Shown here: piece by piece, positions 34,590 to 57,716 of the stretch
Layout of the letters: each line of letters begins with the position of its first letter
Position numbering within the stretch: position 1 is the first letter of the stretch
Source: Marsupella aquatica
Taxonomy: Eukaryota; Plantae; Marchantiophyta
Direction: 5' to 3'
Assembly: GCA_973895155.1 (NCBI GenBank)
Contig: OZ316895.1
Location: 9,722,184 to 9,786,183, forward strand
DNA length: 64,000 nt
Program-made: the position numbers and the translations under genes
The notes under the pieces: model-generated
Seen by the model: the letters and a program-made list of their open reading frames with translations, nothing else
Told to the model about the DNA's origin: nothing
Databases searched by the model: none

Positions 34590-34615
34590 AACCCCAATTT
34601 AAGGAAAACCGAACT
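34590..34615 (+). repeat. Left terminal inverted repeat
   Basis: AACCCCAATTTAAGGAAAACCGAACT; 23/26 identity to the reverse complement of 57691-57716. Looser similarity (AATTCCAA..CTAAATATTAT) continues for about 40 bp inward. Confidence 0.9.
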
Positions 34616-34957
34616 TTGGAAATTCCAAAAATACCTAAATATTATTATTTTAATATGACAGCAATTGCCTGTCAACGCTTCCGATTACCACGCTTAAAAA
34701 ATGACAAGAAAAGGGGGCGACATGACGCGTCGCTGCGCGTGATACCCTGAAAATGACTGCAACATCACATTTTAACAACACTAAGATTTGACGCAATCCA
34801 ACTTGACGGGACCAACAGACAACGAATAATAAAAATAGAGAAATAAATCTTTGAGATCCTTTATATATGATAACCCGTTTAGGGAGATTACAAATAGTTT
34901 CTAGCACGACAATACCAATGGGGAGTTTCTCTTGCCGAATATTATTTCGGAAGCGTC

Positions 34958-35651
34958 CTAAACTGGGCGTCTGTTAAACTGCTCTACTAGATATCTATCT
35001 CCATGCCTCTGAATCAAAGGGTCTTCCCATATAGTATGATTATAATCATAATCTCTAAAAAGAGATTTAACTGACCAATCAGGATAACCTATTCCATTGG
35101 CAACGAGAAGCGGCTCAGAAGATTTTGCGAGCTTGCTAAGATACGGAATCAACACGTTAATCAGGAAACAGTCGTCGATCGACCCAAAATATTTGGGCGG
35201 AAATAATGATCCAAAAACAGGATCTAAACAAGCACGAAATGCATCGGATTCGATAAGCATTATATTTTTCTGCAGATACATCTCCGTATAACTTTCAACT
35301 TTATCAAAACACTTCAAAAATATCCGCTTATTTGAGGTCGCCCCATCGCATAAGTAACAATGAGACTCATCCCAAATATACTTAAATGAGGCCATTTCCA
35401 TCGCAGTAAAAATAGACGCTAAAATCTGATCTAAAAGGTTCTTCTTAACTAAGAGATGACCAGATCCCTACGTCGAAATTCTCAAAACAGAATCTCACAA
35501 ATTTGTGAAGCTAAGGCCTTGGAAAAACGTATACATTCCCAATACGAATTCCAGTTGAGACCACCATCAGTCGGGAATGCGGTGCAGTGTAACAGAGTAG
35601 ATGCTCCACATCTAAAACTATGAGCTGAGTTTCTCTGCTACAATGTATCTC
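34958..35651 (-). pseudogene. FCP1/SCP(NIF)-like HAD domain, copy 3 (one stop and one frameshift)
   Basis: After the acceptor at 35652 it reads QLIVLDVEHLL..VFPRP*LHKFVRFCFENFDVGIWSS, then FKYIWDESHC..IFLKCFDKV..NIMLIESD; collinear with copies 1 and 2. Confidence 0.75.
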
Positions 35652-35744
35652 CTGTAGAGAAACACAATACAAGATAAATGAGCCTGTGTGGATGTTGCCA
35701 CGTGAATAGTCGCGTCACGGATTTACAGACAAATAACATATCCT

Positions 35745-36452
35745 CTACACTCTGGCCTTTGATAAGTGACGTCTGTTGAAGTACTTCATAAGAACTTGAT
35801 CAGCATGTCTCTGCACGTACAGATGCTCCCATATATCTTCGTTCAAAGTCCAATCTAGATGTAGATTTCTAATCGACCAGATGGGATAATCCAACTTGTT
35901 AGCAAACGCAAGACAAAGCCCGGAATCTGATAGCTTCAGTAAATGTGGAATGAGAGTATCCCTAAAAAAGACATCATCCAAGGATCCTTGAAACGTCTTT
36001 GTAAACAACAATCCACATACACCTGTCTGGCATGTATGGGATGGACAGGCATCAATCTGGATTATATTCTCTAATCGATAATCTTGAAACATATCACGTA
36101 GTCTGTCCATAGATTTGAAGACAACTCTCTTATAACATTTCTTCACATAACCAAGATGCCAGCAATGATCTTGGGTGAAAACATATCTCAGTTGCGACAG
36201 GTCCGTGATCGACAACATTTCTGAAAGTATCTGATAAACCAGTTTATCCTCGAGGGTAGACCAAACCATCACATCAAAATTATCATAACAGAATTTTAGA
36301 AAATCATGAAGATATGGCCTCGGAACGACACATAGAGATCCGATAAGAATTGCCGTAGTCCACTTGAGCTCAGGAGTATATTTCTTAATATAGCATAGAA
36401 AGTTTTCCACTCCTAAAACTAGAAGTTGACGCGATTTGCTCCACTTAGTCTC
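35745..36452 (-). CDS. FCP1/SCP(NIF)-like HAD domain, copy 2 (open exon; catalytic Asp missing)
   Basis: After the acceptor at 36453 it reads QLLVLGVENFL..VVPRPYLHDFLKFCYDNFDVMVWST..VFTQDHC..VFKSMDRL..ENIIQID. Confidence 0.78.
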   Translation of the reverse strand, partial: ETKWSKSRQLLVLGVENFLCYIKKYTPELKWTTAILIGSLCVVPRPYLHDFLKFCYDNFDVMVWSTLEDKLVYQILSEMLSITDLSQLRYVFTQDHCWHLGYVKKCYKRVVFKSMDRLRDMFQDYRLENIIQIDACPSHTCQTGVCGLLFTKTFQGSLDDVFFRDTLIPHLLKLSDSGLCLAFANKLDYPIWSIRNLHLDWTLNEDIWEHLYVQRHADQVLMKYFNRRHLSKARV

Positions 36453-36722
36453 CTGTAAATCAACAATTCGATTCTCATATTAACCCCTAAACATAACACA
36501 CAAATTTTAAAAATATAAGTAAACGACGAATGTTTACCCGCGCACGGTCGCGTGACTAATGTATCCATAGTTCAATTCTCATATTATGCAATCAATTCAA
36601 CCACGCCACCCGACACGATACTCACATAACAATATAAATAAATCCACACAGCGACGCGACCGGGCGCGTCACTCACAACACAAAGTCAAAAGTATAAATA
36701 AGAATTATAAATAAATAAATGT

Positions 36723-39517
36723 TTACTTTTCTTTGGCTTCCATTTCACGGTCTTTCCTATCTGATAATATTCTCATGAAATCGTCAAACTCTCGTAAATG
36801 GTCAGGATTACCCTAAGTACGAATGGTCACATTTTTCCTCCAAAGATTCGCCTTATCAATATAATCCTTCTGAAGATTGTCTCGAGAAAACTCTGGAATA
36901 CCATATCCCCGAAGTCGCTCATGGAATTTCAACTTCGGATTGAACATATCGCACAGATACGGATATAGTTTTTTTTGAAAATGTGTGTCATCTTCCAGCC
37001 CAAAATACACGTCGGGATACACAGACGAGTAGAAGCTATTTAAGCTCGTCTTATAAGCAGCATCATCCATAATAATCACATTCTCCTTGTCGTAATTGTA
37101 AGTAGTGGGTAATTCCAAAAGCATGAAGAAACTAAAATTTTTAATTTTTTTTACGGTGTTTAGACTGCAATTATTGCTAACTGTAACTGAAACAACATTC
37201 AAAGTTACTAAGTTCCTAAGTTACGAGTAAACTCAGTTTACGAGTTTACTAGTTCACTGCTTTACGAGTTTACGAGTTACGCCTTAAGAGTTGGCGACCC
37301 TGTGATCGTGACATCTTACGACTAGTTCAACGTGACTCCACAATGGATGAAGAGCTCACCTTGAAAGGGAAGGAATGCAAAGACATAGGCGCTCATTACT
37401 GACTTCTCTTCCACCTTACCTCTCAAACTCTGGCCAACTTCAACCGGTACTTCAGAGATGTCAGATGGAGACTTCGACCTTTCTATTCCAGGATGATGAA
37501 TAGTGATAAGTTCCTGTATCATTATCCCCAAGTGTATGCTGCTACCTGTAACAACTATGATGTGATCGGGATGTACAGAGAAGCTCTTCGTATAGATTCA
37601 TGTTATTTGATGAAGAGAATGCCTTTGATGTATCCTGAGAGACAACTGAGGTGCCTACCTTACTCTAGAGGATTCCCACGCCAGGCTGAACTAATGGAAG
37701 TTACCCAGAATTGAACTGTCACGGCAGTGGAGCTACTCGAACCAGAAGACATCCGACAACAAGCTTGAGTAGTCTACGTCTTTTTAGTTAGTTTTAAGAG
37801 TAGTGCATCTTTCCCTATTTTTCAAAATGTGTTATAGAGCTGTAAAAGCTATGAGACTTCTTCAATAGGTAGTCTGTACCTAGGAAAACCTGCTGGCAAA
37901 ATTTCAGAGTTTTCCAGACCAAGAGTAGAAAGTTAAAAATAGTTGAATTTGCTCAGTTTTTAAGTGTACCGGAATACGCTTTTACGCTATACGTTTTTAC
38001 GTTTTTACGCTTTTAAGGGTTTACGGGTTCATACTTAGCCACTTTTCTAGCTTTTCACTTACTGAATTGCTATTTTGACTTTTTGAGGAGTATGAAGAGG
38101 CATGTCTCTTCGACCCTATGACCTCTCACTCTGTAGATTTTTACTATAAGACCTCTCCACCACTAGTGTAGTTTATGGTTAAGTTATACATTTTTGCCTC
38201 TTCTTTGTGTTAAACTAGTTGATCATGAATCTATGAGTTCGAGATCAGGTTTAACATTTGGAGAGACTTACCTCCTTCTTGTGTTTTTATCTATGATTAT
38301 AAACACAGGAAGTAAAATTCCTTTTGTGCAAATCTTTTGAGTTGTAATGACAGATTCCTTGTTGGTGACTCATTGCAATCTCTTGATTTCTTAAAGTTAA
38401 CTCATTGAGTTTAAGCCTTATTGAAATTGATGGATTTTCTTTCATGTTGCTTAGTACCATCTAAATGTTGAAGTAGTCACTCTTTTAGATCTTGTCTGAG
38501 TACCACTTAGAAAGAAAAGACAAGATGTGTTGACGGCATTTTAAAAGGTACTCTAGTAAGCATTTTAGAACTGAAAAGCAATATGGATTTGAATCCTTAA
38601 GTCTTTTCATTTTGACTTATGTCTAAGGAGCAACCTTGGTCAATTCCAGACTCCCTAAGTAGCATACTTTAAGATATTTTCTCTTGTGTTTTGTTAATCA
38701 TTCCTTTTTCATTAATTTATGTTTACATGATGCTGAGATATCATTGAAAACTACTCACCGCTGTGGAGCGATCTTCAAAATACCTTATTAAAGTAATCAA
38801 ACTTGATTACTATGTGTGGAAAACATTTTTAGTTCTTTATTATTGTTTAAATCTAGTAAACCAACCCCATCTTGTTCTTTACGGGAACGAATACCGAGTT
38901 TGAAGACCTATAAATGTGTTTTTGGTTCTTCATAGCAAACTACAATAATCCTTAATATCGGTGGCAATGTCGGAGAGACATTTGACAAATAGGGGAATGT
39001 CATTATTACTCTTACCAATAGGTCGTGTTGATTCTTGTCCCCAGATAAATTTAATATGGCTCAAAACCTCGGGTCGGAGAATCAGCCTTACACATGATAG
39101 AATATTTTGTTTCAACATACACGACCAAATGACAATGTCGTAAAGTTCTGACACCTTCACAAGAAATGTCATTAAGTCAGGCCTTGGATAGAAAACCTTG
39201 TGCATGTGTTTGACACCCCTTGACCGAATAGGCATCCCAGGGCTGCTTTGCTCTGACCAGATAAGTACCCGATTCAGGTCAAAAATTACAAGTCTCTTCA
39301 TTCGAATTACCGGACCTTTCTGTACCGGTGGCCTCTGCGCCGATGGATTAGGCGTCGTCTGTACCTGTGATTTCTGTGCCGAAGGATTTGGAGCCCGTAC
39401 TACCAAGGTCTTTCCCGCCTCCGGGAAATCAGCGGACTTCAGGATTGGTGCCTTCTTTACTGGTGCCTTCTTTATTGGTGCCTTCTTTACTTGATCAGGG
39501 GGTTTCGGGCTAGGTTC
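36723..39517 (-). pseudogene. FCP1/SCP(NIF)-like HAD domain, copy 1, split by a solo LTR; spliced to the Ulp1 exon
   Basis: KRLVIFDLNRVL..YPRPDLMTFL..YDIVIWS..IWGQES..LFVKCL..DIKDY joins in frame to DKENVIIMDDAAYK once the LTR and one TSD copy are removed. In-frame TAG at 36813-36815; the next stop is TAA at 36723-36725. Confidence 0.82.
37097..38944. mobile_element. Nested solo LTR (1848 bp)
   Basis: TGTA...TACA termini with flanks GTAAT/ATAAT (5-bp TSD, one mismatch). Removing it restores the HAD reading frame. Confidence 0.88.
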
Positions 39518-39603
39518 CTGTAAAACATTATAAAATGAAAAATAAGTTTTATAACGCGAACGGTCGCGTGACTATAAAGACAGACTGAAATGAAGTATAA
39601 TAC

Positions 39604-40395
39604 CTGCCCAAGAAGATGGTCGTTCAGCAATTGAATTCCGCCGGCAATGTCAATCATAGTAGCACGTATCCCGGTACCATGGTTGTCTCCGGACGCCGGC
39701 TTTCGGAAGTCCATGTCATATAACAACAAGACAACTTCCCTACGGAATTTTGCAATGTCTGCAGCGGAGAAACTAATTTCGCTGCCTTGGCACAAACACT
39801 TGGCGTATTTCAACGTAAAAACACCACAACTGTACCCGTCACTTTGGTATGGAATATCGTTCCGATATATCCGTTCCCAACCTGATATATCCACCTTGAC
39901 TCCATTTCTCCATAGAATTTTGTCGACGTAATACTGCCCAACGACATCGAGCACCTTAGGATTTTGTCGATTTTGAACTAGAGAATCCAGGTACTCGAAT
40001 CGTTTCTCCTTCGAATAGACAACTGCCAATGACCAATGTTCTTTCCCAACAATGTGAACTGGAAAGACTAGTTTTTCGTATTCATTGATTCTTAACGGAA
40101 AGTCAACTGTCCAAGATGCTCGGTCCTCATCAAAAACGGTAGGACCCATGGAGAGAAGCTCGAAATGGTGTGTTTGGAAGAATTTTACAACCTCTGATTT
40201 TCCAACTCTATTGAGAATCAACTCGATAAAGCTCAAATAAACATTAATTATATCATTGGTAAGCAACTCGCGCGGTCTCAAACACATCATATGTTTCCTC
40301 TTGATCGATTGGTGTAAAAACTTGGTCAATACCTCTTCCATATCCCTAGAAGGATCGAGGCATTGATCTATTTGACTACCCAAATTTTCAAAAAA
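39604..40395 (-). CDS. Ulp1/SENP-type (peptidase C48) SUMO-protease exon
   Basis: LRPRELLTNDIINVYL, LVFPVHIVGKEHWSLAVV (His), EYLDSL (Asp) and YQSDGYSCGVFTLKYA (Gln, Cys). Bounded by an AG acceptor at 40396 and a GT donor at 39603. Confidence 0.92.
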
Positions 40396-40579
40396 CTGCA
40401 AAAAATAGAGAATTCAATACGCCTTCAAATAACGTACTAAGGTTGTAGCCTACGAGTAAACAGAAACAACAATAAATCAATAATAAAATATAATGACAGG
40501 TCCAAAATCCTAACGACAAAGAAAATACTAGCTGCTAGACTAGAAACAAAATCCTTTCAACTTATAGCTTGCGAATGAC

Positions 40580-42604
40580 CTTTGGATTGGGTGGATCCGG
40601 CCTTTTTGCACCGGATTTCTTGGGTGCCTCCTTCGCAGCTATATTGCTAGGAGCTCCCCGGGAGCGCAGTGATCGATCCACCAAACCGGTTTGTGAAGGT
40701 TGGAGAGATGAGGCGGGAAGACCTTCGAATGGTTGTGGTAGTTTATTTAGGTATTTGACCATCTGTGAGTCTGACAAATCAGGTTCCGCAATATCCACTT
40801 CGCTAGTCTCCGGTTGGGCTTCCGAGTGTGTCGTCTCTGGGTTATATCATGGCCGAGACCACGAACCCGGTCGTGTGAAGTCAGACTTTAGTCTCTTCAC
40901 AGTTTGAGCGGATTCAGAAGCCAACTCCGTTCCCAGTTCTTCCACTCGATTCTCACAAAATCGTACATTATTGGTAATTATCTCTAGTCTCGATTCACTT
41001 GCACTCGTCTCCTCTGTAATCAGAACACCCTTCCAGTAATGCACAGCCAAAACTGCCTGGACACGTAGCAGCTCGGGTGAATATTTATTCCAATCCTCCA
41101 AGGAGACTGTACCTAATGGTGGATCGTCAAACTCAAAGTCCGGACGCAGAAAATAGTCTAATATTTTCTTCTTAATTCCAGCGGACGGCGACGAAGGCTT
41201 CCTCAAATTGAGCTTTATTTTAGGTAATCAGTTTGCCTCAGGAATAAGCGAAAGGGCCCTGGCCTTCTCGGCCTCCTTCTTTGCCTCCTGCTTCTCCGCT
41301 TGTTCCTCCTTCTCCGCCTGCTCCTCCTTCTTCTCGGCCTCCTTCTTCTCAGCCTCTTTCTTCTCAACCTCTTTCTTCTTTGCCTTCTCAGCCTCTTTCT
41401 TCTCTGCCTCCTTCTTAGCCTTCTCAGCCTCCTTCTCAACCTCCTTCTTCTCAGCCTCTTTCTTCTCAGCCTGCTCTTTCTTCTCAGCCTCCTTCTCGGC
41501 CTCCTTCTTCTCGGCCTGCTCCTTCTTCTCGGCCTCCTTCTTCTCGGCCTTCTCAGCCTCTTTCTTCTCTGCCTTCTCAGCCTCTTTCTTCTCTGCCTTC
41601 TCAGCCTCTTTCTTCTCAGCCTAGCTCCTTCTTCTCGGCCTGCTCCTTCTTCTTGGCCTCCTTCTTCTCAGCCTCCTTCATCTTCTCCTTCGTCTTCTTG
41701 GCCTCCTTCGTCTTCTCGGCCTCCTTTTTCTTTTCGGCCGCCTTCTTCTTGTCGGCCGCCTTCTTCTTCTCGGCCGCCTTCTTTTTTTCGGCCTCTTTCT
41801 TTTTGACCTCCTTCTTTTCAGCCTCCTTCTTTTTGGCCTCCATCCTTGCCTGCGCCCTCTCCGCTTCCGCCCTCTCCGCCTCCTCCCTCTCTGCCTTCAT
41901 ATTCTGTGACTCTTCTCTCTCCTCCTCCTCGCTCTCGGCCTCCTTTCTTGTGGGTTCCTCCTCCTCGCTCTCGACCTCCTATCTTGTCGGTTCCTCCTCC
42001 CCGCTCTCAGCCTCCTGTCTTGTCAGTTCCTCCTCCCCGCTCTCAGCCTCCTCTCTTGTTTGGCCCTGCCTCCTATCCTCATCCACCCTGTCGGCCACTT
42101 CTCTCTCTGCTTCAACCGCGGCCTGGACTCTCGCTACCTCTGCCAATGCCTCTGCCTGAAGTTTGGCTGTCTCAACTCTCTCCGCTTCAGCTCTTGACTT
42201 CCTCTTTGCGGTAGCTGCCTTTTGAGCTGCCGCCTTCTGCTTCTTGGCTTCTACCTTTTGAGTCTCTTGTCGGGACGCTTCTAGTGTAAGTGCTTCTTCT
42301 CGGGCCTCCTCTTGTCTCACCGCTTCTAGCCGGGCCGCCTCCTCCTGTCTGGCCTCATCATCCACATCCTCCATGTCTTCGCCGGACCCTGTTGTATCCT
42401 CGTCAGTCCCCTCGTCAAATTTATCAACTTGCTGATATTCATCAATTTCATCGGCTTCCTCATTGTCACTCTCTTTTTTGATTTGGTCATCATCATCGAC
42501 ATCGTTCTGCGGCTCGGTCATCCAATCTGGATCTTGGTCGTCATTGACGTCCCCATGCCTGTCGTTCACTTTGTCCTCACCAGTAAAGCCACTTTGGACT
42601 TCAT
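40580..42604 (-). pseudogene. Acidic plus K/E/A-rich coiled-coil exon of the cargo gene, disrupted
   Basis: A D/E-rich stretch, then many AEKKE/AEK repeats. In-frame stops at 41979, 41228 and 40847, and a 1-nt insertion near 41622 (GAGCTAGGCT versus the repeat unit GAGCAGGCT). Confidence 0.75.
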
Positions 42605-42999
42605 CTGACAAAAATAAAATATATAAATAAATATAATACACAGTAAAAACAATGTTCACGCGTATGTTTGCGTGAAGCTCAACAATGTTTTGTTATGTAG
42701 AAGAAGAAATTGTTTAGGGTTTGATAGAAATTTACCTTGGATGGCCCACGAGGGTACTCTGTTGGCCAAATGTACATTCTATCTGAATCTTCCGAGAGGG
42801 AATACTCTTGCAACAATTGATAACAAATATGATCAGGAATATGTTGTTCTTGGAGGACTTCCAAAACATCAGCCTTGAGAGCAGATATGGATGGACTTCA
42901 TTAGTTTATCTATACATTTTTCTGTACTAGCCCGTACTGGGTCAATCAACGACAGCGTTGTATCATTCATCGCAGTGGTGTGTTGTAGGAAACAAGACA

Positions 43000-44462
43000 A
43001 TTCCCCGTGCGTTGTTACGGGGCAGTAATATTTTACATTGGATCCAGCATCCTGTAAAATAAGAAACAGAAATTAGTTTGACCAATATAAATTGATAGTT
43101 CAAAATCCAAATCATCTGAAAAGCTAAACCCCACAATGTAAATCTAAGAACTTACCATTAGGCACTGGATCAAATTCTTTCCTTCGTCGAAGCATATAGC
43201 CCATTCTCCAGATTGGACGAATTGACTAACAATACTTTCAAAGAATGGAGGCATCTTTTCTGGCGAAGTCGTCGATATCTCGCCGCTCTCTTCAAAATCA
43301 ATTATTTTCTCAATCCGATATTTGGACAGCAATTGGAGCTCAAAGACATCCGAGTCGCCCATTGTGCTGAAGGCCGAGATGTGAAAGGCGTATGTTACAA
43401 TAAGCTTCCTTTCCTTTTGCCGCTTCTGAATATAATTGCTATCCACAGCAATGTACTGTGTGTATTTCACTAATTCCCGTTTGATTAAATAAGACTCAAT
43501 GGGAGTGGCCACAATAATAACCACATGGTGTGGTTTAGCCCCTATTTTGCTAGTAGCACGGAATAACCCCTCATAGAATGCGCAATTTGACGGACGCATC
43601 GCTCCCATTGATGAGGAATCAAAATAAATCAAGCTTGCAAGGTTCTTCTCTTCACGTACGTGATACAGTCTGCAAACCCAACATTTTGTATATCCTACAG
43701 GGATCGAAATATCAGCCTCTCACCGACCGGCCGCACTAGTTGGTTTCCTTGACTATCAACTGATTTCTGTATTCCTTCCACCAACCTGTAGAATATCGGG
43801 TCGATCTCTTTCAACAAATTATCATTACTAATATTTACATTTAAGCACTTCTTCAGATAACCACTCAGCGCATCTCTCAGCTGCTTCAGTACCATCTTGT
43901 TGAGCTTAAAGCAATCAATCATTCCTTGGACCCGCAATTTCCGGGCGGCGTTGGTAAGACTTTTCAGCTCGGCCCGGGTGCCTGTATCCCCGTTGAGTTT
44001 ACTCAACAAAAGAATCTCAAACTCAACTTTTGTCTTCTTCTCTACACAGAATTCCTCCAAACTCCTGCCGCTTGTTGACATCACTAGGGCTTCAGAGGAC
44101 TTCCTAGCCTTCACGGATTTCACTTTGATGCTTCTGTTTTTGAGAATAGACAATTTCCCACTCAACATGTACTCCGCTGTCTTTCGAAGAACTTTGTCCG
44201 AGCACCCTTGACAAGAACGGAATGACTTCTTAAGAAGATGAAAAGCATTTGGATTCTTCGCAACCTTGAGGATCTTCTTCTGCAAAATTCCATTGTATAT
44301 AACAAGCTCTCCTTTCCTTGAAAGTTCATAAACTTCCATCCACTTCTTGAATGTTTCGTCCTCCATGGTAAAGAGGAACGGAGCCAACTCTCCAAATTTC
44401 ATTACCTCGTTTTTGCCCATTTGCACCCATGGGCAGACTAAACTTGTAGCCCTCATAAATAC
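43000..44462 (-). pseudogene. Central cargo exons, including a degenerate amino(N6A/N4C)-methyltransferase-like region
   Basis: ORFs 43695-44489 and 43144-43632, with GT-AG introns 44463-44628 and 43052-43155 in frame. LASLIYFD...EKMPPFFESIVSQFVQSGEWAICFDEG..CLMDAGSNV follows beta-class MTase motif order but lacks DPPY and FxGxG. Confidence 0.45.
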
Positions 44463-44628
44463 CTGGAAAATGAGATAACAAAGGAGCATAACAATTCTAA
44501 GATTGACGCGCCCAGTTGCGTGACAAAATTAACTTCATAAATCTGTAAGAAAATGTAATGCATATATCTGTAAGACAATGTAATGCATAAATCTGTAAGA
44601 ATATAATCGACAAGGGTTTGGTCCATAC

Positions 44629-45830
44629 CTTCCAATTAGGATGACGAGAATGTGATCCAGGCCGACCAAATGAGTTCCATATATTACGACACTGTCTGAC
44701 GATGGTGAGAAATTGCCCCTCTTCCATGGATGTTTGATGACAGTGGTTTAGGGCCCTTGATAGTCCCATCAAATGTATATTATTCTCGTTATTGAGCGTT
44801 GCCCAAAACATGACAGCTTCTACTGTCCTGCATGCATCTCGAACATCTTGGCTGACATTAGCGTCGTCTTTCAGCAATTTGTAGGCCATTATTGTGTGTT
44901 GGCCTCCGAGTATCCAAAAATGACTTCTCTTAATGTCCTCCTCTGTTGGCGCTGATTTGTAGGCCGTTCCATTGTAGTCAGCAATTTCGTCGGCTTCAGA
45001 CTGAACCCACTTTATAGGGACTAAGAAGCAGCATCTCTTCTCAAACTTTATAGTTGAATGAGAAAGGAGTGAATTCTTCAGCCTCTCAGTGTAATCCTGA
45101 TTCCACTCTCGGCATTTGATGTGATCTGGTGCTGTTAAATATGTTCACAACACTATATTCCTTGAGGAAACTATCGAACAGAGCACCGACATTCTGTGCG
45201 GTGATAACTTTTGGAAGATTCTCCGCCGTGTATGTTTCAGCCTCGGTCACTGGAATGGGCTTTCCCAAGCGAAATTCCTTCTTGAAAGGAATTCTCTTGA
45301 ACTCAAGGACGTCAATAATATATTGACAAATCAAATCACCAGTTAATCCCCGTGGATTGGAGGGGTATCCCACACTAGTAACCTTTTCCAAGGTGTGTCT
45401 AGCACCTAGGAGATCATCGATTCTCCTCTGATTGAAGGTCACATATTGCGTGCGATCCAAATATATGCTGATGTTGTCATCTTGGTTATCGTCGCTGACT
45501 AACAGAACCAATCCCTCAGTACACTCTTGAACACTCAAGTTCTTCTCAAAGAAGCACCCAAGAATTTTTGAATTCTCCAAAATTGTAGCCTTCTCATTTT
45601 TTGCAACCACAAGACGGAGACTCCCATTCTGAACAATTATTCCAAGTTTGGTTATCTCTGTCGAGTCAAAGAGATGGAGTGTCTTTGTCTCCGTTGTTCT
45701 CTCCCTGATAGATCTTCCTCGATAAGCAAGAATGGATGTCTCCGTGGGCATCACTCTGGTCTTGGCTTTCTTTTGAGCAACCGATTTAGAGGAGTCTCTT
45801 TTTCGCTTTGATGTCACCATTGGATCCATT
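44629..45830 (-). pseudogene. Cargo exon with a basic NLS-like start and a ParB/Sulfiredoxin-like domain (1-nt frameshift near 45116)
   Basis: Starts with SKRKR..KKAK. Correcting one extra A joins ORF 45086-45829 to an open frame reading HQCREWNQDYTERLKNSLL..FLVPI..FWILGGQHTIMAYKLL..LSRALN. Confidence 0.6.
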
Positions 45831-46029
45831 CTGAAAAATACAAATATTGAAAGTCAAACCTTTATTTCAGAATGACAATACGCGCATGGTCACATCGCGT
45901 CGAATTACATTTTAGGAACTAATCAAACCGAATGGTTTCTTTTCTTGAGGTCAACTCGTCAAAATCTATATCTATAAATAACTATGCGACTGAAAAATTG
46001 AAGCACGCGCATGGTCGCGTCGCCCCAAA

Positions 46030-46635
46030 TTACATTTTAGGAATGTATTTCTTGACCCAATCCTTTCGCTCCTTGTCATCTAACCGAATCCAATGGTTTC
46101 TAAACGTGTCAAGCTCGGTCCCATCAAAACCACCAAGAATGTCCAGAGGTGGAAGAAGTTTGATAGATTCTCTATATCTGAATGCTACATTTCGTGCAGT
46201 CAAATGCCTTCCAAGCGATTCATATCCAGGTCTATCAGTGAAATCGTTTGCTACCAAGGTGACCGTCACCCAAGTACTACTATAAGTAACTATATGATGC
46301 CACTTCTTACTGACTGTTCGAATGGCGATCAAGTCCATGACCCGTTTTTTAATCGCATTATCTGACAAATTCCCAAGTGAATGGAAAAACACTTTGACTA
46401 AAGGCCAAATATATTTCTCGACAATATCGTCCGGGAGGCCAGGTATCAGTGCTTCTGCATCACTCCATATCATTTTCCAATTTATAACCTTTGCACTTGC
46501 AATTCGATCCATCATCATTTGACGATGAGATTTTTGATTCATGTCAAAGGACTGCAACATCATATGGAAAAGATTAAGAAAGGGAACCTGTCCATCAGGA
46601 ACTGGAACCACCAAGATTCTGAGTAAATGTACCAA
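46030..46635 (-). CDS. F-box-like repeat 3
   Basis: LIPGLPDDIVEKYIWPLV...LIAIRTVSKKWHHIV. Confidence 0.7.
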   Translation of the reverse strand: MVHLLRILVVPVPDGQVPFLNLFHMMLQSFDMNQKSHRQMMMDRIASAKVINWKMIWSDAEALIPGLPDDIVEKYIWPLVKVFFHSLGNLSDNAIKKRVMDLIAIRTVSKKWHHIVTYSSTWVTVTLVANDFTDRPGYESLGRHLTARNVAFRYRESIKLLPPLDILGGFDGTELDTFRNHWIRLDDKERKDWVKKYIPKM

Positions 46636-46756
46636 ACCTTTCGACTAGAAGAAGTCGCTCTTCTTCATCTAAATAGTCATATCTGTCACTAAATAATAAC
46701 ACGTCGCCGCAACTAGTAGTCCCAAGAATGGGTATTTCTAGGAGCAGAGAGATATC

Positions 46757-47161
46757 CTATCGAATAACTCGATAGACTGAGTCAAATTCCAAATCCTCAG
46801 TCTCGGGTATGTAGGAAAGTGCGTCATTTGCGTTATCGACCATCCGATTTGCTTGTTTTAGGCTAGCCCATAACTTGGTATTCGTAACTAGAAAGTCCCA
46901 CTTCTTGCTACACGCTCCAAGCCGGATAAGGTCTCGGACCCGAGCCACAACCAAATCGTTTTTGGTAAGTCGATATCTACTCAATCCTTGAATTGAAATA
47001 AAGTATTCGTATAATATTGGCCATATTCTCGAAATGACCAAAACATCTGGTAATCCTCCTATGAGACTAGAGGAGGTTTTATCGAGCATGTCCCAGATAT
47101 CTTTCTGTTCCCTTTCATGAGATGAAAGAAAATCTTGAGCCAGATTGAGGAGTTCGCTCAT
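46757..47161 (-). pseudogene. F-box-like repeat 2 (the TAG at 46757 looks premature)
   Basis: LIGGLPDVLVISRIWPIL...LIRLGACSKKWDFLV. Paralogous sequence (KYPFLG; FSDRYDYLDEEER) continues beyond the stop. Confidence 0.68.
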
Positions 47162-47222
47162 CCTGTTGTTATCAAATCACAAAACATTGTTAGAAGTTGT
47201 CTCACGCGCCCGGTCACGTATG

Positions 47223-47771
47223 TTAACAACTAGCATTTAGGTCATCCTCAAGGTACCCAACTTTGTGGCATCTTATTGTAAACTGCCATTTTTCAACTGG
47301 GTGAAGAGCATCGTAGGTCTTCGTAAATAGTTCTCTAAGAACGCTGGACATCGACCCCAGGAATTTAATTCTTGGGTATTTCTTGAAGAAACTTTGCACA
47401 GTCGATGAGAGAGACTCATTTGGGATCGATTTAGCAGTATGTCTTGGGAAATCTAAATCTAATAAACTCAACTTGATTATACCCAATAGATAGGTATTAC
47501 CAACAAGGTGGCGCCATCTGCAACACATCGAAGATAGTCCAATCAACTCATTCAATTCCTTTGTTGAGAAATTTCCTGCATTAGCCAAGCAATTAAAAGA
47601 ATCCTTGATTCGAGGCCAAATCAATTCCGCGACAATGTTATCTGGAAGTCCAGGTAATAGTGTCTCAACAAAGACAGAATATCCCTCCATTAGGCCATCT
47701 TGGGTTTTGTCGAGAATGTCAAATATGGGGCAGAGATATTTGAAGCTCTCAAGACCAGGTTCCCCCATCAA
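47223..47771 (-). CDS. F-box-like repeat 1
   Basis: LLPGLPDNIVAELIWPRI...LIGLSSMCCRWRHLV. Confidence 0.7.
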   Translation of the reverse strand: MMGEPGLESFKYLCPIFDILDKTQDGLMEGYSVFVETLLPGLPDNIVAELIWPRIKDSFNCLANAGNFSTKELNELIGLSSMCCRWRHLVGNTYLLGIIKLSLLDLDFPRHTAKSIPNESLSSTVQSFFKKYPRIKFLGSMSSVLRELFTKTYDALHPVEKWQFTIRCHKVGYLEDDLNASC

Positions 47772-48033
47772 TGAACCTCTATTTTGATTTGTGATGCGAC
47801 TGGTCGCGTCAAATAATCAAAACGTTTCCTTCGGTCACGGAACTAACTATAAGAGGTCTAACGGGCATGCGACTGGTCGCGTTAACTGCACCTAACATGC
47901 GACTAGTCGCGTCACCTAATCCTCGGAAATCTCTAAACCTCCCGTGTGGAGATCTACCTCACACGCAACTGGTCGCGTCAAAAGATAATCCAAAATTGAT
48001 CGAACAACAAACCAGGAGTAGTCACAATATCGA

Positions 48034-50708
48034 TTGATACCTGTACGGACTGATAAATCCAAATGCGAACATGGAATTATTAAAGTGAGATACATTCATG
48101 CAAAGATATATTTATTAACTGGATTCAGGCAGACCAGTATTGAGTGTATTCATTTAGATAACAGGCGATCAATGGGATTCATTCATAATTATAAGCAATC
48201 ATAACATTCATGAAGTTTCCAATATTACTATTCAGATGTTAGCACGCTATGATTGTGAAACAATCATATGTCAGAAGTTTTCATATTGCAAAGAATTCAG
48301 TTTAGCATGATTCACAGAGCATCGGTCAGTTAAAATTATTAAATTGTACAGGTTGCTGCTGGTTGTTGAGTCGATTGATATGATTCAGTGTAATATAATA
48401 AGATGAGTCAATTGCACAGCCTGGAAGTTGTATGACATCGTTAATATGATCAGGTTATATTTGAGTTGGCTTGTATGATTCAGTCATATTTGAGTTTACA
48501 GACATAAACTGCATCAAACTCAGCTTAATGATCTGTAGAATGATCTCAGGAAAAGTACCTGAATTCTGACAAATTGATCGATGTAATTGATCGATGTAAT
48601 CGTCTGAGAGATAGAAATTAATTTCCACTTAAAGACCTTGCTGCGGCATTCCAGAAAGAACGTATAAGATTGAAATCCCATATTGATGTATTAAAGATAG
48701 AAGCTAAGCGAATATCTCGAGGTAAACAGTTCTTCCACTAAAATTGCAATCAAGGCGGCAAGGAACTCACGATCTCGAGGTAAACAGCCACTTCTAGAGA
48801 TAGAATCATACGCTGTCGGTAGAATGTTGAGAATGAATTAAAGCATAAACCTGATCAATGAAAGAGCTGAAACAAACTTGATGAATGAAACGATCTGAGA
48901 CAGGCTGCCGAAAATGAGTTCGAGCTGCTGGAACAAGCTAAAATTTGCTGGTACAAGCTGATACGAGCTTATACGAGCTGATACAAGCTGAACACGAGCT
49001 GAAACTCTCGCAACTTCAGAGCTCCAAACAAACAAGTTGTGACGAACCCAAGAAGCCCTTCGAACAAACCAGAAGCCCTTCAATTGAGCAAACAAGAAGT
49101 GAATATGAGATGTGAGATCGAGCTGAAGCGCGCCAACCACCTCCGGACCACAACAAATGAGAGCTCCTGACCACAATGAACGATCGAGCTTCGGACCACA
49201 ATGAATGAATGATCGAGCTCCTGACCACAATGACCGAGCTACAACAAACGAAATGGGGCGAACGAGAGCAGGCACGTGAAGGTCCTATGGAGCTGGCGCG
49301 GGAGACAACAACAATGAACGAGAGAAATGACAAGAAGTGAACAACAATGAACTCGAGACCGTGTGCGCCGTCACTAAGTAATGCGAATTAGGATAACCAT
49401 TTTAACATAACCCTAATAAGCCTACACATCCTACGGATCAAAAGGTTCCGGATGATCTCCGTACACCTTCCTAAGACTCAATCAGTACGAAGTAGGCAAT
49501 CGTGAAAAGAAGATTACCGGAATCTTCTTGATTGGCCGTACTCAACGAGATTTTAGTTGGATCGCCAATTTGAAATTTAAACCGGTAATTATGCAGTTGC
49601 GATAGATTTTGGTAGTGGAGACCCCCGGATCCGGATCCATATCTCCACTCTCTACATCATGCCAATTCAAATTTGAGTATCGAGCCAATTGAAATCCAAA
49701 CTCCTGGATAACGTAAAAAGATTCTCACGATCGGAGTGAATCGATATTCAAAATCAATCCATTTTGGAAGTGGACAATACCAGATCCGTATGTCCACTCG
49801 CACGTTGAATAGCAACTCAATTCAAAACTCAAGAAAGTATCGTGCCAAATCCTAATTCCTGAACAACATACAATGATTCTCACGACTGGAGATTGAATCA
49901 ATTTTCAAAATCAAAACCAATCCAGATGAACACATCCTTCATGGAGTCAGACTACTCTCATCGTTCACGGATCATTCTTCATTTTCAGTTTCTCCTGACT
50001 AGCGGAACTCTCAACGGACGCTGATCCAAGGAAAATTTGAGGTGGAGCTCATTGGATCATTCGACCATTCCAGCCAGGGCGGGGCTCATGCAAGCAACTC
50101 AGGCGCAGTTCATTGTATGACATTCTAGGGAAGGGCTCAACCGACCCTAGCGTAGGAGTTCTGGCGGAAGCGAGACGACAAAGTTATAGGATCTCTATAG
50201 TCATCCTCGCTTATTCGGAGCATTCTAGTGGACCAACAAAGAGCGGCTAGTTAGAAGGCACTTTCTGTTCGAGGATTTTGATCTCGATACGATCAAGAAG
50301 CTTTTATTTTCTGGTTGAGGCATTCGGTCTGGATACAATCACGATACTCAAGGCAATTGGAGTCCGACGGAAGGTTTGCGAGGAGCAGGAGGCTTGGCTG
50401 GGAGGAGGGTTATCGCCATAATTGCTGACGAAGACAACACGCAACTGAACATCTTGTAAGTACGCAATTCCGCAATCAATGACGAGATTAATTGCCTTCA
50501 ATCACGCATTTAATTCATGATTTGACTCCATGAAGTTCTGGTCGAATTCAATCACTCCTCAATCAAGTCCAATCCAGAAGAAATCTATCACCATGAATTC
50601 CTTCTATGAAGTACTATGGTAGTCGTCGATCAAAATGAAATCTTCGCAGTCCAAACTAGTGTGTCTTCCAATTTTACATGGTGGTACATATGGGTATTTT
50701 AACATACA
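48034..50708. mobile_element. Probable nested insertion (~2.7 kb, LTR-like, non-coding)
   Basis: Flanked by ATCGA direct repeats (48029-48033, 50709-50713); begins TTGATACC and ends ATACA. Has internal GAGCT-rich low-complexity repeats and lacks the dyad motif that clusters on both sides. Confidence 0.55.
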
Positions 50709-51439
50709 ATCGACTCTAGCGAATTAGCCATAATTTACTTTTATATTGAAAGTCTTCGTTTCATCACGCGCCTAGTCGCGTGATTGTTTTAGAGGAGAGG
50801 ATATACTCTCCACTCTTAAATCTAATCGCGCTCCATTTCTGAGATCCGATTAATCTCTATTTATTAGTTACTTTACTTAGTCATTGAGTAGAACTCCACG
50901 CGCACAGTCGCGTGACATAACTGACCTCAGGTCAAATTCTCTCAAGAATTGAAGCCAATATCTGTTCGTTTACCGCCTTGTTTGGGGATGACGGGCACGT
51001 TCCCCATTCTGGTTGACTGACCACGCGCACAGTCGCGTCATTCTTCCTGCTGTATTCTAAGGTAATATAGATGTAGTATAGTATCACTCAAGCCTCTGTT
51101 ATTTTGATCATTAGGAAAAGACTCTCAGCCCTAGGTGGTCTAAACTGACTTCATTCAGATGAACCTAATTATTCCAGACGCTAGTAAACATGCAAGGCAT
51201 TCCAAACATACATACATGGAGCACTATTCATGGATTTAATACCCAATCTTGTTCACAGTGCACGCGCACAGTCGCGTCAAAATTATTGTTGTCTTCTAAG
51301 GTAATTTAGATATAGGATCGAATCACTCCAGTCTTAGCGGTTCTCGTTGTTGACTAAGAAGCCATCTTGAGAATCATTTCAACAAGAATTCACTTCATTC
51401 AAATGACTTGAATTATAGTAGAAGCCAGAAAACATAAAT

Positions 51440-52217
51440 GACCATTCTGGAATATTTTTTCGTCGATTACCAAAAAAGACTACATCCATCCCGAAGGACT
51501 TCGAATGTGGAATCCATTTCCATTGAACTGATTCCGTTAAAATATATCCCTACGGGATTAAATCTAGCTACATCGTATCCCTACCGAGTTCTAACTTGGA
51601 CTACGTTTTACTCAAATTCAATAAGCTCTAGCCTTACATCGAGTCAATCATTCCACGAAGATGGCATCCACTCATCCGTGTCTGGCGTGGATTCGCCAGA
51701 ATCCAAGAATGCCTCCTTTGCCCAAGCTCTATGGTCCATAAATTTGCGTGCGTTGCTCGGCTTCCTCCTTCTGTAATACAGTTCACAATCTTCCTTCATC
51801 TCTAATTTCCTTTTTGTAGTTGCGTCCACGTTCTTGGCCTCCTTCTTGACTTTCTTAGCATCAGCTGCTGCCTTGACCGTAATAGAATCGACGCGTACTT
51901 TGGCCTTCAACTTTTCCCCGGATTCCATCTTTGGATTCGACACGGTTGGATTGCTCTCCATCTTATCTTCCGTCATCAAATGTGGCGAACAGTGGGTTCT
52001 CACAAAAAATTTGACCTCTAGATGTAGTCACCGCAAACATGATATCACATCGCTTACACAATCTGAAAGGAGTACCACGATAGATAGAATCTTCTGCATT
52101 GTCTGTTGGAACATCCACATTCTTCAAGCTCACCGGCTTAGCCATCCCTTCAAGCAAGAGATGCGGACCGAGACTAAGAATTTGGAGTGAGAGGAAAGAC
52201 TCTTCTATTGGGAGCAA
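51440..52217 (-). pseudogene. Decayed first ORF/exon of the leftward cargo unit
   Basis: Overlapping ORFs 51963-52217 (CKRC..C) and 51644-52003 (K-rich) run on into stop-interrupted coding-like sequence. No family recognised. Confidence 0.4.
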
Positions 52218-52344
52218 AGGAAGGGAGAGCTGATGTGCGATTACATTATCCAGTAACCAGAATGTTCAATGCATGGGGAATGGGCAGTTTAGACATCATC
52301 TCAATGCTTTATAGTCTTTACTCTTCACTACTGTGGATATTGTC

Positions 52345-52527
52345 AATTAAGTGGCATGAATGTAGGGCGGAATCTAGGTTGGTTTCTAGAAGAGAGTAAT
52401 CATCTATCAATTCAGTGGCACGGATGTAGCGCGGCATGTAGGATGGTTCTACAATAGAATAACCGTGTGTCAATTAAATGGCACGAATATAGGGCGGAAT
52501 CTAGGGTGGTTTCTCGAAGAGAGTAAA
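52345..52527. repeat. Three diverged ~60-bp tandem repeats in the divergent spacer of the transposon
   Basis: CAATT(A/C)A(G/A)TGGCA..(A/G)AT(G/A)TAG(G/C)GCGG..T(C/G)TAGG.TGGTT occurs three times. Confidence 0.75.
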
Positions 52528-52714
52528 CGTCAGACTGGCGCGGAATAGAATTGGCTGCAAGCTAAATTGTCGTATAATTATGGCTTTAATTTCACTGTCG
52601 GCGACTGGCCCGGAATGTACTGATTGTTAGTGATGTACTGGAATGATTATGGGGTTCTCAGTAGATACTGACTGTCGAGTGTCCACTCAGTGGTACTGTC
52701 CACTCAGTGGTGTA

Positions 52715-53322
52715 TCTTATTATAAATTGCAATCATATCTTACTTATGAATCGCCAACTACGAGCTAGAGTTTGGGCCTAAGCTTCTAGCTTCTAGGTTT
52801 TAGACCCTATGGGAAATAGGAATCTATAATGTTGAATCGGTCATGGGCTAGCCTAAGGGTGTCCCACACATTTTCAGGCTGTGTCCACCCGAACCTAACT
52901 CGGGCGACTGCAAAACTCTCCCGGCCCGATATTTGAGTCCCCCAATAGGAAAACCACTTCACGCACAGCGCCGCAACACAACTCATTGCTAACTACCCCA
53001 GCAAATATTGGCCCGAGTATACCTAGTTTCGGCTGCCCATAAGGTCAGATTTTTCCCCATATCTGAGACGCCCTAATAATGCTTGTGAAGAGGTCAGTCG
53101 TGTCATTGAGGGTCTCCCCCGTGTCTTTGGCAAGGGCCTCCCACTCCCGTGCCTTCATTATGGACCCCCCCTTGGGATATATATTTTTGAGCGATGCGTC
53201 GCCCTCCCCTCGGTCCCGATGCGCTCGCTCCTTCCTCTCGCCCTCCGCTCCATAAATGGCCTGGCCCGACTCCTTATGGGCCGGCCCTCCTTGCACCCTA
53301 CAACGCACGAGTATAGGGCTTG
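52715..53322 (+). mobile_element. Nested non-autonomous Helitron-like element
   Basis: Starts A|TCTTATTATA (less certain) and ends ...CAACGCACGAGTATAGGGCTTG|T. The 3' ~75 bp match the reverse complement of 13066-13140. Confidence 0.58.
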
Positions 53323-53518
53323 TTCCACAATAGAATGTTACGGAAGAAGCATGACGCGACTGGTCGCGTAATGGATTGGTTCATACGGCTACTAAGTCCT
53401 CAAGAAGCATCACGCGACAGGTCGCGTGCAGTACTTTGTCCTTACTTTGGTAGTTGACGGCCGTGACAGGACAGCACGCTTATAGTCATATTCGCTATTG
53501 TGCAGGATCATAATTAGT

Positions 53519-56500
53519 ATGGTGACATCGACAGTCTGGATCAGGGAAGGCGGACAAGTTATTATAGGCATCCGTGAAAAACAAGTTGGAAAAGGTCGTG
53601 TGATAAGTCTTGATCCTTCCAGGGTTTGTCACAATGTCACATAGTTCTTCTTCTATTGGAGGAAGTTTTTGACGAGACTATTCAATGCCGAGATGGCAAA
53701 CTTTTGAAGGACATGATTGGGGGCTACCTTGTATGGGAAAGGAATCAACTTTTTCAAGCTCCCATGGAATCGGAGGATTTGTTTGGCGAGGTTGGTGATG
53801 ATCAAGATCCAGTTGAGAAAAATTATGTTGGGAACCACCATAATGAGAGTCGGTCTCGTGTGGAAATAGTTTTACCAAAGGCCTTGTGGATGGGCATGCC
53901 TATAAAGGTGGTGGATGAGAACAAGTTGATTTTTGCAGTGGCAACTATACATGTTCTAGATCCTATAGTCAAGCTTGGGGATGTCACCCTTGGGAATACA
54001 CATGTGGGAATTCTGATCAACAATTTTGTTGAGGGAGCTACGGTTGACCATCTGAAGCATAGAGATTGCTTAAAAGCTTGGTCGATAGACCAACTCATTG
54101 CCAAGGATGGCAACTTGTTGTCTTTCCACAACATTAGGCAAGAAGTGGGAGGGAACACATCTCCTACAAGTGGAAAGCGGTCCTACGTCCATAAAACTAG
54201 AAAAAGAAAGAGTCCATCTTCCCAGACATCTAGAAGAGACACATCTCTGGCACGTCAAGATGTGTTGTTGATAAACACAAAGGACTGTTGTAGTGAACAT
54301 TGTTGCCAATATTTGGACCGCAACTTGGCTATGGCAATTAGGCAAAAGTGGTGGTCAAAATCTTTTGCGGAGCGCAAGGAGGAGGAGGAAATCAAGGCTA
54401 TAAAAAATACAATACACTTGGGTACGGGCAAAAGGATTCTAGTAGTGGAGGGCAAAGTATTGTGCTTGGAGGCATGGAGAATCATTCATTCAAGAGGAAA
54501 GACTCAATTTTATGCCTTGAAGACGACTATGATGGCTGGAATGAACATAGGTACCCATGGTAATGCTGGAAAAAGGCGTATGTCTGAGAAAGTATCTCAA
54601 GCATTCATGTCAATGAAAGAGATTATTGAGGAGGCAGCTGATCATCATCCAGCCAAGTTGAGAACCATGGTAGATAATTCAAGGGTGGATTTGAGGGAAT
54701 TGCCAACCAATCTTACTTGGGAGAATATTATAAACAGGGTTAATGTTGGCAACAAGGAGGCTGGTCTTCCTCCAATTTCCCAACCCACCTTGAGTCATCT
54801 ACATCAGATGTATTTCAGGGAGTTCTTGCGTCACAAAAAGGGCAACAACTTTTCAAAGTGTACAACTTGTAGTGAGTTGCTTCAACGGAAAGCAAACCTT
54901 ACAGGAGCTAAGGAAGAGTTAGATTGCCTAAGGCGTGATGAGGAGGAACATCACCAAGACCACACACAACAAAGAATGTGCTATCATACCTGGAGATATG
55001 AGTCCATCCATCGTCCAAAGGAAGTGTTATGCCTTATTCATGATAAGATGGATCATTCAAAGACATCTCTCCCAAGAATGCCCTTCAATCCTAAGCATGT
55101 GGATGGTGCCCAAAAGTTCCCAATTACTGTCACTGGTATCCTTACTCATGGTCATGGTCCCAAGGCCATAGCCCAATATCATGTTGGAGTGTGGCCAGGT
55201 GATGTCAACGTCACTATTGGGTCAATTGATTCAATACTAAGGATGTTGGAAAACCCAAATCTAATGATCAAATCTCTTGTGGAGGGGCCAGACTCGACAA
55301 GTCTTTTAATTTAAAGACCTCCTTTTTGGGAGAAAAGATATCTTGGAGGCAAGTGTCCTTAGAGCATTTGAGGATGACATTGCCTACATCTCAAGCCTAG
55401 GTACTTTACTCACAATCCTTTTATTATTAATAATATAAGCTCACACACACTAACACTCTACTTTATGTAGTTGTTGCTCCTCCTAGCCAAGGTTTCATTA
55501 ATAGGATTTAAACCCTAAACCCTAAATTGGGGTTTAGGGTCTGACTAGGGTTTTATTTAAAAGCATTCTGAGATTGTTACATTGTGATGCAGCACCCGAG
55601 GCACCAAAGTTCAGGCCCCTTCCACGAGTATTGAAGCTACAACTGGATAATTGTGCCTCAGACAACAAGAACAGATATACGATGGTTTATTTGTCATTGT
55701 TGACGGCAAGGGAGGTGTTTGAAGAGGTTCATCTTGGTTTTATGGTGGTTGGGCATACTCATGAGGACGTTGATGGTATGTTTGGGCATTTTTTAGAGTC
55801 TATGATGCATAACCCCACATACTCATTGCCTGAGTTAATGTCCTTGTTCATGAGAGCAAGGACACCCAATGTAGTCCCACATTTTCTACAGGAGGTCCCA
55901 GATTTCAAAAACTACTTAGCTCCATTCATGTTGAAGGGCCTTGAGGCATTGGTGGGGCATTTAAAACCCAGGCTGTTTAGGTTCTATGTTCGTCATGATA
56001 GTATGCCATGCTTCCAATACAAAATGAAGTCAACTGATCAGGGATGGTTACCCAAGGAAGGTATTGAAATGTGGTCATGGAAAGATGACAAAAGTCCTCA
56101 CATCCCAATTGGGGTGCCCAAACGGCTACCAATGATGGAGTTGAAAATGCTTCCTGAAGTGCTGACAGGGTTGAAGAAGCATGTGTCATTCTTTGAGTTT
56201 ATTCTAAAGCGAACAAAAGAGGAAGAACCAAAGTGACGTTGGACAACTCTCATCAATTATTGGAATGACATTGTAGATACTCTACAGGGTGAGCAGGTGC
56301 AATATGAACCTGAAGGTGCACACAACTTGGAATACGGGTTTTGGCCTTTATCAATATGGAGAGAGCACGTTCCACCAGAATATCAAAATGTGGCATGTGA
56401 GTTGGAGGCAACAATGGATTATGTGGGACCAGCAAAAGATAAACCTTCTGAGAGTTTTAACCCTAGGGTTGATGTTGTGAAGGGCTGTTATGTGTTGGTA

Positions 56501-56881
56501 CGGCCGGACGACTCAAACCTGGATGTTTATCCCGTCCATATGGGGTTAGTTGTTACAGATGTGGTAGAAGGACCAGTGAATGAACAAAACCTTCTTACTC
56601 ATGTATGTGGCGTTGAGTGGTTTAGACCATTTATGGCAAAGAAGCAACGTGGTCAATCAAACTGGTAGCCAAGAGAGCGGTGGGCAGATTCTTGGGATAA
56701 AAAATGTGAACGTGATCCAACTCCAATATACAAGGAAGCTAAGACAATAGATGTTTCCTCTGCCTTGTGGTGTTTCAAAGCACGCAAAGGACCAGTGACA
56801 GGGCTGGTAGGAATTCCAAAGAATGTTGCTGCCAAGGCAAGAGACTATCTCTTGACATGCATAGCAAGTGACAAATCCTAG
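53519..56881 (+). pseudogene. Sola1/DUF7869-type DDD transposase (about 1,050 codons reconstructed; intron 55401-55592)
   Basis: Cys-rich DCCSEHC..VLCLEAW, then FSKCTTC..H, CLIHDKMD (D1), LQLDNCASDNKN (D2) and FMVVGHTHEDVDGMFG (D3). Frameshifts near 53640 and 55309; in-frame stops at 56234 (TGA) and 56666 (TAG); final TAG at 56879-56881. Confidence 0.87.
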
Positions 56882-56976
56882 ACAATAATGAAGCATGTAG
56901 TTTAGCATACAGTTTAAAAGGCAACTCAGAATAGTAGTAGCCAGAGAACTCAAGTTTAGACAAGTCTTATCGTCTA

Positions 56977-57690: not shown

Positions 57691-57716
57691 ACTTCAGTAT
57701 TCCTTAAATTGGGGTT
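57691..57716 (-). repeat. Right terminal inverted repeat
   Basis: ACTTCAGTATTCCTTAAATTGGGGTT, followed by ATAT. Confidence 0.9.

Follow-up and report, generated by a model that had tools for sequence, protein, structure and literature searches.

VANDAL transposons of flowering plants are the established case of sequence-specific transposon anti-silencing: their VANC proteins bind short intronic and intergenic motifs and remove methylation (PMC5735166, PMC10398659), and some VANC-type anti-silencing proteins contain a Ulp1 domain (PMC13317346). Here we describe a DNA transposon of 23,127 bp (34590-57716) from the liverwort Marsupella aquatica. It lies in a stretch of 64,000 nucleotides, hereafter the window (assembly GCA_973895155.1, contig OZ316895.1, positions 9,722,184 to 9,786,183 of the forward strand). 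Its accessory arm joins a ParB-like exon to an amino-methyltransferase (MTase)-like exon and likely continues to a Ulp1 protease and a NIF/HAD-like domain. We give an even chance to a model in which this core is made as one protein of about 2,190 residues, and in which the same transcription unit probably yields three F-box-like modules and two further HAD modules as alternative products. If the anti-silencing mechanism proposed below were true, the element would be an independent solution in another superfamily, assembled from ParB-like, amino-MTase-fold, Ulp1, NIF and F-box parts.

Like VANDAL/VANC and the KIU (Kaonashi) Mutator-like elements (MULEs) of Arabidopsis, the element is large, carries accessory genes and encodes Ulp1 in an accessory protein (PMC5735166, PMC10398659, PMC13317346). 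As in these systems, a short motif has amassed in introns, intergenic and terminal non-coding DNA, partly by tandem duplication. Unlike VANDAL, it has a DUF7869 rather than a MuDR transposase, terminal inverted repeats (TIRs) with a 4-bp target site duplication (TSD), and as its motif a 20-bp CG-rich palindrome, here called the dyad. The candidate DNA-binding part is a ParB-like domain plus an amino-MTase fold, not the MAIN-related VANC fold (PMC13547354); F-box and NIF modules are further differences, and anti-silencing is here a prediction from sequence. No MULE or VANC-related Pfam family was found in the element, so that the transposase and VANC expected of a VANDAL are missing, while the concentration of an element-specific motif in non-coding regions is present. 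Sola elements have a 4-bp TSD and TIRs, can exceed 15 kb and have been reported from the moss Physcomitrella (PMC10741241). The ATAT duplication at both ends, the TIRs and the large size of our element are Sola-like, whereas the passage on Sola in that source mentions no such cargo and the transposase is known only as DUF7869. The architecture as a whole was not found in the literature searched, whose coverage left out most subscription journals and Repbase reports.

The core gene is composed as follows:
44629..45830, minus strand: core exon A, with ATG at 45829, basic N-terminus, unnamed domain and ParB-like domain; frameshift near 45133
44463..44628, minus strand: in-frame intron with a dyad, conserved in relatives (ends of relatives and Calypogeia fissa gene models)
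43156..44462, minus strand: core exon B, helical domain and beta-class amino-methyltransferase-like fold; frameshift near 43670-43710
43052..43155, minus strand: in-frame intron, donor conserved in relatives (homologue ends)
42736..43051, minus strand: core exon C, end of the MTase-like domain; frameshift near 42871
42605..42735, minus strand: likely intron (T fraction 0.42, donor 8/9, degenerate dyad), out of phase in the window copy
40580..42604, minus strand: core exon D, with an acidic region, a coil of Glu/Lys/Ala repeats and a linker; three stops and one frameshift in the window copy
39604..40395, minus strand: core exon E, Ulp1/SENP protease with His-Asp-Cys and Gln intact (Pfam and SENP1 comparison)
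36724..39517, minus strand: core exon F, Pro/Lys linker and NIF/HAD-like domain 1 (HAD1); an insertion inside and one internal stop

Among 1.84 billion representatives scanned without a profile, 31 relatives were found, which mark exon ends because most of them are unspliced open reading frames (ORFs). The Val encoded at the donor of the ParB-like exon (in-frame GT) is present in 17/17 relatives reaching it (20 aligned; two of the 17 are near-duplicates), after which the tails are unrelated. At the end of the MTase-like exon the donor Val is found in all nine relatives that extend so far (11 aligned; 7 distinct sequences). Moreover, in the C. fissa gene models P0013, P0025 and P0039 the ParB-like exon is spliced to its downstream neighbour where predicted; these proteins, 29-37% identical, are the only plant-named relatives found. 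The C. fissa models carry the accessions CAM6097985.1, CAM6103508.1 and CAM6113017.1. P0031, an ORF of 2264 aa, also spans from the ParB-like into the next exon, with a weak match to the latter, and P0001, P0003 and others span the frameshifts near 45133 and 43700. At the level of gene models and genomic ORFs, these comparisons show that the ParB-like and MTase-like exons are spliced together. One further ParB-like relative, P0032, ends at the plant-type donor position on a 2.5-kb contig of a metagenome bin labelled archaeal, and is likely eukaryotic contamination.

Without any F-box, P0039 from C. fissa and the unspliced P0003 start with a Met and basic residues where the core has ATG 45829, and core translation would begin at this ATG. 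From here the core has 2,193 codons. Its onward chain to Ulp1 and HAD1 as one protein is likely, because the predicted splice sites are good and the linker stop at 41228-41230 is private to the window copy; in other copies, sampled in four sequencing runs from two studies, it is Arg. These runs look like DNA, since introns are covered and none of the joints listed is splice-like, and they are uninformative on expression. The window copy itself is decayed: its core has at least four frameshifts, four premature stops and a 1.85-kb insertion in HAD1.

In Atlas the ParB-like exon scored 0.93 against a cluster in which 35% of the members have ParB_N (140 shared features), and it carries a G/D-G-Q-H motif that we take to resemble ParB; it had no match in Pfam, NCBIfam or PDB. 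A ParB-type domain is likewise tied to an amino-methyltransferase in the ParB-linked methylases of phage ParB-terminase loci and their algal derivatives, which, as described in PMC4738411, are not land-plant transposon cargo, unlike the present protein. No phage homologue of the ParB-like exon was found, the best PHROG ParB match being E 0.099 for 1/21 members. A second Atlas look-alike (0.94; family on 31% of members) is Starship DUF3723, likewise an accessory gene conserved in giant mobile elements (10.1101/2021.12.13.472469); Starships differ in being fungal, tyrosine-recombinase elements, and the 21 ParB-like members had no Pfam DUF3723 match.

The MTase-like fold was predicted with AlphaFold2 from a 13-sequence alignment led by the relative P0001, which is the sequence modelled (predicted local distance difference test score, pLDDT, 76; single-sequence prediction gave only pLDDT 30); the last strand of the fold lies in the next exon. 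Foldseek matched the model to the beta-class amino-methyltransferases M1.HpyAVI (best, E 7.9e-6), CcrM, M.BceJIV, M.RsrI, MTA1 and METTL3, and it has the permuted Rossmann fold of this class. As in M1.HpyAVI, CcrM, M.RsrI, MTA1 and METTL3, the strand with Asp comes first and a Phe-x-x-Gly-like motif last; unlike in these enzymes, the domain is carried by a transposon and forms a fusion with a ParB-like domain. The Asp ending the first strand is kept in most relatives, while PPY is absent from all those aligned, the position of the catalytic motif being read from the strand order of the model and not from a residue-level structural alignment. Because PPY is kept in no relative, the domain is predicted to be inactive; Marchantia MpDN4MT1, by comparison, has TSPPY (10.1101/2021.02.12.428880).

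The Ulp1 domain matches PF02902 at E 3e-21, and its His, Asp, Gln and Cys are intact when compared to SENP1. NIF was found above the Pfam cut-off in HAD1 and in a second module, HAD2; the main frame of a third, HAD3, had no such Pfam match and is joined to them by paralogy, the three NIF modules being 23-36% identical. Phosphatases of the FCP1/SCP (NIF) type have the catalytic consensus DxDx(T/V), and at this position all three modules are degenerate (DLNRV, GVENF and DVEHL). Sequence searches of PDB with P0001, A1, A2 and HAD1 gave nothing significant.

The remaining modules of the accessory arm flank the core:
47223..47768, minus strand: F-box-like ORF 1, own ATG and stop; aligns to its paralogues, no Pfam match
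46595..47161, minus strand: F-box-like ORF 2, ATG two bases past an acceptor; PF12937 E 0.003, internal stop at 46757
46030..46563, minus strand: F-box-like ORF 3, whose final Met-stop overlies the GT donor at 46033; PF00646 E 0.002
35745..36452, minus strand: NIF/HAD-like module 2 (HAD2), NIF E 9.5e-10; phase-0 acceptor, no start codon, own stop
34958..35651, minus strand: NIF/HAD-like module 3 (HAD3), 36% identical to module 2; phase-0 acceptor, own stop, frameshift near 35470

At 25-37% identity, the F-box repeats are paralogues of one another, and the Pfam matches of F-box 2 and 3 (E 0.002-0.003) lie below cut-off. All three F-boxes end in a stop of their own, and an acceptor lies no more than 10 nt before the ATG in F-box 2, in F-box 3 and in the core. 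A homologue search with F-box 3 found none among 16 candidates. When 32 coding differences among the best 40 of 85 rows were used, 12 of the 28 changed codons of F-box 3 were synonymous compared to 23.5% expected (p 0.018); repeated on another listing of differences, the test gave 13/34 (p 0.08). HAD1, HAD2 and HAD3 all open at phase-0 ACAG acceptors, which match the Ulp1 donor. HAD2 and HAD3 have no start codon, both finish with Val-stop, and they look like duplicated last exons. The stop at 35511-35513 in HAD3 is Tyr in other copies and private to the window copy. In the commonest subfamily the tail of HAD1 is divergent (joint 36678-36773), so that its phase may differ there and tandem splicing may occur. 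A separate promoter for each module was considered and rejected: the spacers of 43-271 nt are too short, which argues for one transcription unit rather than independent genes. The F-boxes as well as HAD2 and HAD3 probably yield separate or alternative products.

An earlier sequence-only reading had listed seven frame-preserving introns from F-box 1 to HAD3 and derived from them one or a few long proteins that would unite DNA targeting with SCF recruitment, deSUMOylation and phospho-CTD binding. All seven are indeed GT-AG and join the flanking frames, and a strong dyad (position weight matrix, PWM, score 22-28) lies in five of them, the two without being 43052-43155 and 40396-40579. Donors were scored as matches to nine consensus positions, with 552 GT sites as background. 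The donor from HAD2 to HAD3 (35652-35750), already flagged as weak, scores 4/9, a level met by 383/552 GT sites. The interval 47163-47256 is not T-rich (0.29), has a donor of 5/9 (met by 216/552) and covers the last 11 codons and the stop of the F-box 1 frame. Introns downstream in the core have a T fraction of 0.42-0.47 and donors of 6-8/9, which at most 64/552 GT sites reach; among them, 40396-40579 and 39518-39603, at a T fraction of 0.45-0.46, are rich in T and have good splice sites. The three junctions that could not be phased before remain so: at 42605-42735 a phase-0 donor at 42735 faces a phase-1 acceptor, between F-box 2 and 3 a phase-2 donor faces a phase-0 acceptor, and the phase-2 end of HAD1 faces the phase-0 acceptor of HAD2. 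That the last is unphased merely through the insertion in HAD1 was rejected, as the mismatch persists when the insertion is skipped. Conservation of the splice sites is borne out by homologues for 44463-44628 and the donor at 43155; the junctions further downstream had no homologue support. Of the long proteins of that reading, the ParB-like/MTase-like core is joined in relatives, whereas an all-in-one product of about 3,200 residues, comprising all F-boxes and all HADs, looks unlikely from the sequence.

The dyads were located as follows, without strand, from the dyad scans:
47792..47980: four 20-bp dyads in a cluster upstream of F-box 1
34723, 35698, 36536, 36652, 39552, 42656, 44504, 45878, 46003: further dyads, first part
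47202, 50764, 50896, 51021, 51260, 53352, 53410, 57240: further dyads, second part

Matches to the core pattern of the dyad (at most 3 mismatches) number 19 in the element and none in the 40.9 kb outside, and 20 Markov shuffles gave 0-2 occurrences. A PWM, trained on 17 of the sites and thus circular for score, not for position, gave 23 hits, all within the element and 22 of them outside cargo exons. Comparisons with other copies showed that the motif was multiplied through local duplication. The dyad was rejected as a marker that tells introns from gene boundaries, as it occurs in both. At 50764-51310, plus strand, four dyads are spaced 125-240 bp apart, and two of them precede by about 22 nt strong plus-strand donors at 51062 and 51301, possibly leader exons of the transposase. 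With dyads masked, the observed/expected CpG ratio in 2-kb bins is 0.64-0.96 across 34-54 kb and falls to 0.26-0.28 across 54-58 kb; the drop (53500-57700 compared to 34590-53500) is sharp and falls just past the last dyad pair. NCG codons make up 73/396 in the cargo, 10/177 in the transposase (p 3e-5) and 22/101 in a host gene. The CpG retention near dyads suggests long-term protection of the kind expected from VANC-like anti-silencing.

In the mechanism that we propose, a shared upstream leader would splice to the acceptors that immediately precede the start codons of F-box 2, F-box 3 and the core, and the Ulp1 exon to any one of the three phase-0 HAD last exons. A dimer made of the ParB-like domain and the amino-methyltransferase fold, the latter predicted to be inactive, would bind the palindromic CG-rich dyad. 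At dyads, SUMO would be stripped from silencing factors by the Ulp1 domain, and the pseudo-phosphatase tail would serve as a binding module, while the small F-box proteins would divert host SCF ligases. The net result would be local shielding of the element against DNA methylation, comparable to the role of VANC in VANDAL. Taken alone, this anti-silencing mechanism as a whole is tentative, and we rate it a little short of an even chance. For tests, the element supplies a defined palindrome of 20 bp and a protein that may bind it, as well as a footprint in its sequence, with CpG kept near dyads and lost in the transposase arm.

Two other arrangements of the accessory genes were weighed, each of which we regard as unlikely. 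In the polypeptide of about 3,200 residues proposed earlier, three F-boxes, the core and three HADs would form one chain, or F-box 3 and the core the main product. It agrees with the seven in-frame junctions, with a possible phase-2 donor near the end of each F-box repeat and two phase-2 acceptors, with a spacer after F-box 3 that varies internally between subfamilies while donor and acceptor are unchanged among the best 40 of 85 rows, and with the differing HAD1 tail of the commonest subfamily. However, the F-box 2 to 3 junction is out of phase and no indel of at least 30% share in 45780-46700 of other copies would phase it, the F-box 1 and HAD2 donors are at the level of random GT sites, P0039 and P0003 begin at the equivalent Met, and HAD2 ends in the same Val-stop as HAD3, which is last. 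Two separate core genes, a ParB-MTase-acidic coil protein and a Ulp1-HAD protein, would fit the early Met in the Ulp1 exon, the unphased 42605 junction, and P0031, in which the ParB-like part and the weak next-exon match are followed by a long low-complexity tail with neither Ulp1 nor NIF. This arrangement has to face an intron at 40396-40579 that is in frame and T-rich (0.46) with a donor of 7/9, and an upstream frame that continues into it, with the linker stop private to the window copy. The single core protein with alternative modules, which we prefer, also has observations that speak against it. F-box 3 joins the core in frame with a good acceptor and a 7/9 donor, and an F-box 3-core fusion may exist; P0004 begins deeper inside exon A, and the starts of gene models are predictions; 42605-42735 is out of phase in the window copy; and no RNA run was found, so that all junctions are predicted from genomic sequence and protein relatives. 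Our searches found no relative in which the ParB-like domain occurs alongside Ulp1, NIF or F-box: P0031 had no Pfam match, a word search for relatives of 857-2445 aa returned 0 of 6966 candidates and another long-relative search one protein only (both weak negatives). Contig scans gave nothing except the bacterial false match L001. The ParB identity itself is a lead, drawn from the motif and Atlas, and the CpG step could stem from a different origin of the two parts or from gene-body methylation of the transposase.

The dyads could instead be promoter or transposase-binding sites, the accessory protein having another role, e.g. as transposition cofactor, which we consider doubtful. Both gene arms are preceded by dyad clusters (47792-47980; 53352 and 53410), two dyads are followed by strong plus-strand donors, and transposases that activate their own copies are reported in a 2026 preprint (10.64898/2026.08.24.746577). 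In contrast, most dyads are held by internal introns far from the termini, and CpG retention tracks the dyad-bearing part. A bolder version of the anti-silencing mechanism would have a family of giant plant transposons with liverwort relatives, in which ParB and the amino-methyltransferase read the intron palindrome or mark it (with N4-methylcytosine or N6-methyladenine) and exclude host 5-methylcytosine, with three F-box decoys and three phosphatase-like tails deployed by alternative splicing, or with one protein of 3,200 residues; this we hold to be improbable.

The element and its remaining parts are:
34590..57716, no strand: whole DNA transposon, 23.1 kb, with short imperfect TIRs and ATAT at 34586-34589 and 57717-57720
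53614..56668, plus strand: decayed DUF7869 transposase gene, Pfam E 9e-36, CpG-depleted
37097..38944, no strand: high-copy TG...CA insertion in HAD1, long terminal repeat-like, with a 5-bp duplication (one mismatch); other copies lack it

TIRs, a target duplication, a transposase and dispersed copies with differing flanks identify a cut-and-paste DNA transposon, whose copies are many and divergent. The transposase motif and an AWWT preference presumably link it to Sola. The limits of TIR and TSD may move by a few bases because ATAT is palindromic; 34590 is the exact point at which contigs from other copies start matching in the DNA runs. A high-depth subfamily in these runs is about 13% divergent from the window copy and suggests that intact copies exist. 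The insertion in HAD1, which the earlier reading did not cover, shows a contig depth several-fold to about 25-fold above its surroundings; the insertion-free joint 37092-38946 was present in 4/4 runs, and skipping 37097-38944 restores the NIF frame. At 51644-52265, minus strand, two overlapping frames of 99 and 127 codons, one Lys-rich with CxxC, have no Pfam match and are possibly a small accessory gene. Upstream of the transposase, 53241-53323 has an 83-nt inverted match (82%) to 13065-13147 outside the element. Elsewhere in the window, 25891-26413 contains nested inverted repeats with arms of 53, 26, 25 and 22 nt, resembling a miniature inverted-repeat transposable element or a hairpin. We take 6744-8958 (minus strand) to be a decayed reverse transcriptase of a long interspersed nuclear element and 20396-21916 (plus strand) to be an intronless plant-type 6-phosphogluconate dehydrogenase frame.

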